A stretch of 64,000 nt of DNA from NCBI GenBank assembly GCA_965248445.1, contig CBDFJG010000001.1:558131-622130 (forward strand). Reading direction: 5' to 3'. The translations under genes and the position numbers were made by a program. This document shows, one piece after another, positions 33,738 to 34,885 of the stretch. This stretch comes from Planctomycetota bacterium (GTDB taxonomy: Bacteria > Planctomycetota > JAJSAM01 > JAJVHW01). Position 1 is the first letter of the stretch. Each line of letters begins with the position of its first letter. Under the pieces are notes generated by a model that had not been told where the DNA came from, ran no database searches, and saw only the letters and a list, made by a program, of their open reading frames with translations.

Positions 33738-33769
33738 GGTGTGGCACGCCCGTGAGGAGTCGAACCTCA
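33738..33769 (-). repeat. 32-bp direct repeat copying the 3' end of tRNA-Arg (att-like site)
   Basis: GGTGTGGCACGCCCGTGAGGAGTCGAACCTCA at 33738-33769 is identical to 34805-34836, which is the 3' 28 nt of the tRNA-Arg gene plus 4 nt of flank. Confidence 0.7.
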
Positions 33770-34146
33770 GGACCGCTCGCCACTTCGTGCCCGATGTGGC
33801 GGCAGAGTTCCTCGGGGACGCGGTCCAGCTCGACGAGTAACTCCCGCAGCGTCTGCCCCTCGACGTACTCCATCGCCATGAAGTGCTGCCCGCCCGTCGC
33901 GTCGCAGTCGTAGGTGCGGACGACGTTCGGGTGCCGGACGACCTTGCCGATCTCCGCCTCACGCAGGAACCGTTTGAAGAAGCCCGGCGTCTCCAAGAGG
34001 TGCGCGTGGACCACCTTGAGCGCGACGCGCGTGCCCTCGTCCAGCCCCGGCACGCGACCGTCCACGACGGCGGCGTAGACCTTGCCCATCCCGCCGGAGC
34101 CAAGCTCGCGGTCGATCAGATACGGGCCGAGGCGGTTTCCCTCCAC
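33770..34146 (-). pseudogene. N-terminal fragment of a Ser/Thr protein kinase, truncated at the tRNA-derived repeat
   Basis: GTG start at 34146; LGSGGMGKVYAA glycine loop and ALK lysine; the kinase domain stops after ~120 aa where the tRNA 3'-end repeat begins. Confidence 0.7.
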
Positions 34147-34216
34147 GTGCGAAGGCTACCAAGGGAGCGGGCTGTCCAGCGGTGGCGAGATGGAGTGCGT
34201 ACGTCGTGTGACCGGA

Positions 34217-34705
34217 TCAGCGCTCCTCGTCCGGCCGCAGAAAGCGATGGACGTCCGGTGACGCCGAACCGGCAAGTTCTTCGAGGCAAGCGACTGCGCG
34301 TGCGCGACCACCCAACTCGATGCACGAAGCATCGGCGTGCACATAGAGCAGACCGGCGACCGCTCCCGCCCGGCGCAACGGGACGCATGCAACCGTGACG
34401 CACTCGAGATCGAGGATCGAAGGAGCAGGCGTGACGTCCGGCCGGAGGACGTCGATCAGGCTGACGCCTCGCCCCCCGTCCACCACGCGCTGCACGGCGA
34501 CCCTCGAGTACAAAGGCGTGCCGGAGGGAACGGTGCCGTCGTCCAGCCGCCCGCGGACGAGGCGCGGCCGCTCCCCGGCGTCAAGAGCGAGCAGCAGTGC
34601 GGTCTGGGCACCGGTGACCTCCAGTGCCCGCTGCAAGAATCGGTCAGCAGCGTCCACGTCGCCCTCCGGTGAGCATTGCGGCGATCCCGCCGGAGCCAAG
34701 CTCAC
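34217..34705 (-). CDS. GAF-domain-like protein (162 aa)
   Basis: GTG start; pattern consistent with a GAF fold; its 5' end overlaps a second copy of the kinase start sequence (34683-34727, in another frame). Confidence 0.45.
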   Translation of the reverse strand: MSLAPAGSPQCSPEGDVDAADRFLQRALEVTGAQTALLLALDAGERPRLVRGRLDDGTVPSGTPLYSRVAVQRVVDGGRGVSLIDVLRPDVTPAPSILDLECVTVACVPLRRAGAVAGLLYVHADASCIELGGRARAVACLEELAGSASPDVHRFLRPDEER

Positions 34706-34808
34706 GGTCGATGCGGTTGGGGCCGAGGGTCTCGGGAGTCACGGCGGCACGGTATCAGGGTGCGGTGGGCCGAGTCGCCGGGCGGGACCTTCGCCGAATT
34801 GGAAGGTG

Positions 34809-34885
34809 TGGCACGCCCGTGAGGAGTCGAACCTCAAACCTCCTGATCCGTAGTCAGGTGCTCTATCCAATTGAGCTACGGGCGC
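34809..34885 (-). tRNA. tRNA-Arg (anticodon ACG)
   Basis: 77-nt cloverleaf: acceptor GCGCCCG/CGGGCGU, D-arm GCUC-AAUUGGAUA-GAGC, anticodon arm CCUGA-CUACGGA-UCAGG, T-arm GAGGUUCGACUCCUC, 3' CCA encoded. Closely resembles the E. coli tRNA-Arg(ACG) sequence from memory. Confidence 0.9.

Follow-up and report, generated by a model that had tools for sequence, protein, structure and literature searches.

The DNA analysed here is a stretch of 64 kb (hereafter the window) of high G+C content (68%) from a Planctomycetota genome, in which the tRNA-Arg(ACG) gene lies next to an ABC permease gene whose nearest relatives are found in Planctomycetota MAGs. The 3′ end of this tRNA gene faces lower coordinates, and it is followed by a short spacer, the stump of a Ser/Thr kinase gene (K′), an orphan ORF, the N-lobe part of another kinase gene (K) and a second copy of the tRNA 3′ end, beyond which a non-coding flank sits upstream of an accessory beta-helix gene at 32209-33360 (Table 1). 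The interval of 1,035 bp between the two copies has a G+C content equal to that of its surroundings.

Table 1. Features at the tRNA-Arg(ACG) locus, listed in the direction of tRNA transcription (coordinates are those of the window)
Feature	Coordinates	Strand	Evidence
Intact tRNA-Arg(ACG)	34809-34885	-	ARAGORN (sole tRNA in the window); Rfam RF00005, 65.4 bits
Proximal 32-bp repeat, candidate attL core	34805-34836	-	Exact match
Spacer of 62 nt from the tRNA repeat to the first kinase start	34743-34804	-	No promoter- or terminator-like site
K′, Ser/Thr kinase gene stump of ~20 codons	34684-34742	-	Frame translation; 45-nt identity matrix
Orphan ORF, GAF-like below threshold	34217-34705	-	Pfam below gathering score; frame other than that of K′
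K, kinase N-lobe of ~125 codons	33770-34146	-	Pfam Pkinase; 65-79% identity to family members of ~1,200 aa
Distal 32-bp repeat, candidate attR core, displaced tRNA-Arg 3′ fragment	33738-33769	-	Exact match
Non-coding flank past the distal repeat	33361-33737	-	No Pfam match in six frames

The two copies of the tRNA 3′ end are identical over 32 bp (GGTGTGGCACGCCCGTGAGGAGTCGAACCTCA), and this 32-mer occurs exactly twice, even when up to three mismatches are allowed, with a chance expectation of 0 (100 shuffles, no matches). Thus, the duplication reported in the initial annotation is borne out. The copies are spaced by 1,067 bp from start to start, and when the region was compared with the whole window by blastn, the only internal similarities were this repeat and one imperfect repeat of 45 bp. 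Read on the tRNA strand, the repeat covers linear positions 50-77 of the tRNA and 4 nt further downstream, i.e. the T-stem 5′ arm (TGAGG), the T-loop (TTCGACT), the T-stem 3′ arm (CCTCA), the acceptor 3′ strand (CGGGCGT), the discriminator (G), CCA and then CACC, and its first base coincides with the first base of the T-stem. The distal fragment is terminal, i.e. it reaches the tRNA 3′ end, and it lies downstream of tRNA-Arg in the same orientation. Folding of the distal fragment as a tRNA-like minihelix or other structure was considered and rejected (fold z-score of -1.1, Rfam without any other match), and a promoter and terminator scan of 33300-34950 returned none. Far from this locus, at 6854-6873 (minus strand) inside an FG-GAP repeat gene, a weak match to the T-loop/acceptor part of the tRNA was found in the same orientation (18/20 with a gap, E=0.16). 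Its reading as a third decayed tRNA fragment, which would mean a larger or tandem island or an old att site, was rejected, and the match is taken as chance.

Both kinase genes in the interval are incomplete. K′ has a GTG start followed by TPETLGPNRIDRELGSGGI, and its similarity to the kinase family ends after the glycine loop; in the spacer, ~12 nt directly 5′ of this start resemble, in a local alignment, the kinase 5′ leader of MAG OFTM316 (L161). K matches the Pfam Pkinase profile (PF00069) over positions 3-110 of 263 (E=2.5e-13), and it lacks the catalytic loop and all that lies beyond, with no HRD, DFG or C-lobe, which leaves the catalytic domain incomplete. The remaining part of the K gene, from the C-lobe onward, was sought in the whole window and is absent. 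Residue 125 is the last of the Pkinase match and lies right beside the distal tRNA fragment, and kinase homology stops at 33770-33772, only 0-3 nt from the distal repeat, which confirms the initial claim that the kinase fragment ends there. The called ORF of K (P0001) continues across the tRNA fragment and terminates at 33583, and the read-through part has no domain homology. In the frame of the kinase, the tRNA fragment (33739-33786) translates to ..SGPEVRLLTGVPH (..TGVPH); its G-V-x-H can be aligned to the AGVVH(RD) motif of the kinase with the expected spacing kept exactly, and for this reason tblastn alignments extend through the tRNA fragment. K and K′ are pseudogene fragments of two paralogues and not kinases.

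The starts of K and K′ share the imperfect repeat mentioned above (34088-34132 against 34684-34728), with 39 of 45 positions identical. It had been described before as a second copy of the kinase start, placed one base off at 34683-34727; the repeat is real, but it is not a scrambled duplicate. The same 45 nt of K′ are 38/45 identical to the kinase of MAG OFTM316, i.e. about as similar to a kinase of another genome as to the neighbouring K, and the sequences 5′ of K′ and K are unrelated. On these grounds a recent duplication was rejected and K′ is regarded as the stump of a second paralogue, and the 45-bp similarity is, as judged from these alignments, family-level conservation of glycine-loop codons.

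The orphan ORF between the two stumps had been called a GAF-domain ORF. While the ORF is present, both Pfam scores are below threshold (GAF_2, PF13185, 22.2 bits against a cutoff of 28.6; GAF, PF01590, 21.0 against 22.4), which leaves it GAF-like at sub-threshold level only. A search among 5.8 billion proteins returned only the self match, no match was found among PDB sequences, and no similarity appeared when the ORF was aligned to the kinase family described below. Its codon bias is weaker than that of K (GC3 of 0.77 against 0.92), and the mean pLDDT of its AF2 model, 38, is too low for a confident fold. It is probably a decayed or foreign gene fragment. The idea that kinase and GAF were parts of one scrambled gene was rejected, because full-length relatives have the architecture Pkinase-AAA_16-TPR without GAF, and the orphan ORF aligns nowhere in them.

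K belongs to a family of ~1,200-aa Pkinase-AAA_16-TPR (STAND-type) proteins that is common in Planctomycetota; an exhaustive search with K gave 78 representatives at E<=1e-30, and most of the top ones are 1,150-1,300 aa long. Genes of this family are often broken in other genomes (L161, L163 and L166), and they stand in a tandem array in L164 (3-700). In L161 (10001-10800) the kinase is cut by an IS5-like transposase fragment, in L166 (6001-6959) an internal deletion joins residue 124 to residue 1087 in the C-terminal TPR region, and in L163 an extra start stump (441-560) lies ~60 nt upstream of the kinase. The kinase of L163 (ENA contig k141_731598, 555-1103) is the closest kinase relative, with an N-lobe 85% identical; its continuation is presumably akin to eukaryotic MAK/ICK-type kinases, so that a chimeric metagenome contig is possible. 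Breakpoints seemed to recur at kinase residue ~124 (L165, L166 and several short hits), but this was rejected as a selection artefact: the pile-up stems from the word-index search, which is biased by length, and among the unbiased representatives breakpoints range from residue 83 to 253. A role of the kinases in a defence island was rejected as well, as PADLOC gave generic kinase-domain matches only.

On the upstream side of tRNA-Arg(ACG), gene order is conserved. The succession argC-argG-PP2C-ABC ATPase-ABC-2/CPBP permease-tRNA-Arg(ACG) is kept in three related genomes (L001, L002 and L017) and, minus PP2C and argC, in L006, so that in all four the same ABC permease is followed by an orthologous tRNA. 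The conserved block (34919-46757) also holds, further along, OTCase, argB and an M20 peptidase, and the argC-argG-PP2C-ABC-tRNA order persists in distant Planctomycetota MAGs. Synteny ends at tRNA-Arg: the content downstream differs in L002 and L017, the latter having unrelated genes there, and the contigs of L001 and L006 end. In L002 (8514-13520), tRNA-Arg(ACG) and tRNA-Arg(TCG) lie 466 nt apart with 83% identity, and beyond them come 45-nt tandem repeats (9239-9328) and a gene for a 980-aa DUF3854/DUF3631 protein; this DUF3854/DUF3631 region probably represents a mobile element that integrated at the corresponding locus.

On the other side, the 20 kb below the distal repeat are accessory DNA, with IS66, IS110 and IS1595 elements, IS1380 copies and remnants, the beta-helix gene and a gene in which a kinase is joined to a periplasmic-binding domain. 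Two copies of a 1,532-bp IS66-family element (22395-23926 and 29932-31463) are 100% identical, which points to recent transposition. Three further diverged IS66 copies or fragments lie at 1943-3279, 27976-29502 and 17118-17383, and a C-terminal remnant of IS1380 (~31448-31858) adjoins the end of the second identical IS66 copy. The IS110 transposase gene is split into a C-terminal part (24057-24890) and an N-terminal part (25862-26707) by an IS1595 insert (24889-25908), an inverted 697-bp piece of which, 99% identical, is found at 20264-20960. No close orthologue of the beta-helix protein was found. Some 300 nt upstream of its gene, GTGAC/GTCAC motifs recur in the stretch 33560-33737 (minus strand), among them the imperfect palindrome GGTCACCCAAGAGTGACT; from its sequence, this motif cluster may be an operator-like site.

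The initial annotation had further stated that no integrase is left, and our scans agree: no recombinase or integrase domain was detected by Pfam in the six frames of 33361-34808, and no integrase or site-specific recombinase domain in the ~40 ORFs scanned across the window (coding-like and long ORFs). Searches for an outside partner were also negative. The 28-nt tRNA part of the core had no exact match in viral contigs, plasmid and phage records matched the interval only through the tRNA itself and generic kinase similarity, and no cognate ICE/IME or integrase for the same att site was found in the window or in the viral contigs, plasmids or phages searched. The nearest relatives by the adjacent ABC permease, among genome and metagenome contigs, have 61% and 47% amino acid identity. 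The sequences downstream of the relatives' tRNA-Arg genes have no significant similarity to either window flank, including the flank past the distal repeat, and relatives at <=61% amino acid identity are too distant to show an empty site.

We hold with moderate confidence that the two 32-bp copies are a degenerate attL/attR scar of a mobile element that integrated at tRNA-Arg(ACG). In Islander (PMC4383910), integrase-mediated islands are defined by a regenerated tRNA gene together with a displaced 3′ fragment, and the T-stem/junction subsite is used by nearly half of the mapped tRNA islands (1836/3919; PMC4383910). Judged by the tests of that study (PMC4383910), the locus presents a full-length tRNA with a cognate fragment, which is an end fragment and has the configuration and orientation of an island; the interval contains no integrase, and its 1,067 bp fall outside the island length range of 2-200 kb (PMC4383910). 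The agreement in fragment, configuration and orientation, together with the hotspot-like break of synteny, makes a degenerate scar the most likely explanation. The extent of the repeat, from the T-stem through CCA plus 4 nt, is moreover the usual extent of att cores for integrators at the T-arm/3′ end of tRNA genes and hence fits such a scar, and the mobile-element gene (DUF3854/DUF3631) beside the neighbouring tRNA-Arg of L002 speaks in its favour. Against it, there is no mobility gene between the repeats in any frame, and the remnants are chromosomal-type kinases and not typical island cargo. Due to the exact abutment of kinase and distal core, an att scar also needs an extra deletion that ended at the core edge, or the trimming of a longer core.

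From the repeat with its extent and orientation, the gene remnants and the synteny break, we infer an integrase-mediated origin followed by deletions. In such a course of events, a circular element would have entered the 3′ portion of tRNA-Arg(ACG) by Campbell-type insertion, with a tyrosine integrase as the most probable catalyst and the crossover in the T-arm/acceptor region, leaving attL and attR cores. The element would have supplied, from a copy it carried, the 3′ end of today's intact tRNA-Arg, and the original 3′ end would have been displaced to its present distal position together with the old flank. The non-coding flank past the distal repeat, with the sequence CAACTCGTTGC, would then be the flank of the tRNA gene before integration, the empty site before insertion would read tRNA-Arg...GTGCCACACC joined directly to CAACTCGTTGCAAGCC, and the junction of the excised circle would read ...GCGAGCGGTCC-core-TTCCAATTCGG. 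Deletions and rearrangements in this very IS-active region would later have removed the integrase and almost the whole element, and the remaining 1,035 bp would be dead DNA consisting of two paralogous STAND-type kinase stumps and an orphan ORF. As for the earlier view of the duplicated tRNA 3′ end as an integration footprint, the geometry fits, but no empty site, integrase or attP-bearing relative was found. Its description as a decayed or recombined integrated element remains the best available reading, given the break of synteny and the IS-ridden flank, but it is not proven, as the integrase and the island length are lacking.

It is unlikely, in our estimation, that the distal fragment is instead what remains of another, identical tRNA-Arg(ACG) gene, such that the ancestor had two copies around a tandem array of STAND-type kinases and a single deletion, from K codon ~126 to tRNA position 49, removed the 5′ two-thirds of one copy and left its 3′ 28 nt. 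One deletion would account for the exact abutment of kinase and fragment, which for an att scar demands an additional event, and kinase genes of this family are elsewhere found in tandem and often truncated or internally deleted (L164, L166 and L161). L002 does have two tRNA-Arg genes 466 nt apart, but these differ in anticodon and are only 83% identical, and thus they are not a true precedent; no second ACG copy appears in the available DNA of L001, L002, L006 or L017, the contigs of L001 and L006 ending at the tRNA or just after it. The identity of the two copies at our locus runs 4 nt beyond CCA (CACC), a stretch that independent tRNA copies would not have to share, and for a break to hit exactly the first T-stem base would be a coincidence (~1 in 50-77).

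We place at a similarly low level the idea that the repeat arose by a duplication without any integrase, either as a tandem duplication that fused tRNA position 50 to kinase codon 125 and was then trimmed to 32 bp by deletion, or as a templated patch of 32 nt copied from 1 kb away while a kinase-truncating deletion was repaired. The kinase/fragment junction would here be the rearrangement junction itself, and hence the abutment needs no further event; the region is highly rearranged, and the alignment of ..TGVPH with AGVVH(RD) could stem from a local resemblance of the sequences. However, no microhomology, which a template switch would predict, is seen at those junctions open to checking (GGTCC/TGAGG against AGGTT/TGAGG), and this absence favours the att scar. 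Two arbitrary events are required for the tandem-duplication route, and templated filler of ~32 nt is, to our knowledge, rarely documented in bacteria. Moreover, both variants leave unexplained that the repeat starts at the T-stem boundary and ends just beyond CCA. An assembly artefact, i.e. a chimeric join at the short exact repeat that made a false second copy, is scarcely credible. The contig, 654 kb long, is apparently metagenome- or isolate-derived, which would leave room for such a join, but the distal copy is flanked by unique sequence on both sides, and reads must therefore connect both flanks. The contig also crosses the two identical 1.5-kb IS copies, which suggests a long-read assembly, and public records include the kinase ORF with its fused tail as an annotated protein (P0001).

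With neither an integrase nor arm sites, present-day movement of a degenerate att scar is unlikely; the structure is functionless today and is a genome fossil, not a working system. Its overall significance is small, as for an ordinary fossil of this type. Nevertheless, it marks tRNA-Arg(ACG) as a hotspot of integration and rearrangement at the edge of an arginine-biosynthesis/ABC-transporter block in a poorly sampled lineage of Planctomycetota. The candidate 32-bp att core TGAGGTTCGACTCCTCACGGGCGTGCCACACC can be used to seek the cognate integrase or element in this lineage, and gutted scars of such a kind would escape island finders that are based on integrases.

Among known systems, the Pkinase-AAA_16-TPR (PknK/MalT-like) kinases are the family to which the two stumps relate: K is 65-79% identical to their first 125 residues, and K′ has the start and the glycine loop, whereas the catalytic loop, DFG, the NTPase domain and the TPR region of these kinases are missing from both. 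CIMEs are att-flanked remnants of ICEs or IMEs without integration and transfer genes (ICEberg 2.0, PMC6323972). Like them, the locus is bounded by two identical att-like cores and lacks the genes for integration and transfer; however, functional attL and attR sites with their arm sequences are retained in CIMEs, for which a partner element is known, whereas here kinase coding sequence stands in place of the inner arm beside the distal core, and no partner element or integrase was found in the window or in the viral contigs, plasmids or phages searched. On these grounds we do not assign the locus to the CIMEs, and it is highly unlikely that the interval is a still-mobilisable, integrase-less att cassette of this kind, excised or accreted by an integrase encoded elsewhere in the genome. 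If it were, tRNA-Arg would be a docking site that captures and exchanges 5′ modules of STAND-type kinase genes. The other close comparison is with the tRNA islands of Islander that are formed by tyrosine integrases at the T-stem/junction subsite. The locus differs from these islands in its missing integrase, in its length of 1,067 bp and in holding chromosomal-type kinase stumps instead of island cargo, and no related intact element was found for it. With them it shares the intact tRNA followed downstream by a terminal 3′ fragment in the same orientation, the block of identity that runs from the T-stem to past the 3′ end, and the break of synteny beside accessory DNA.
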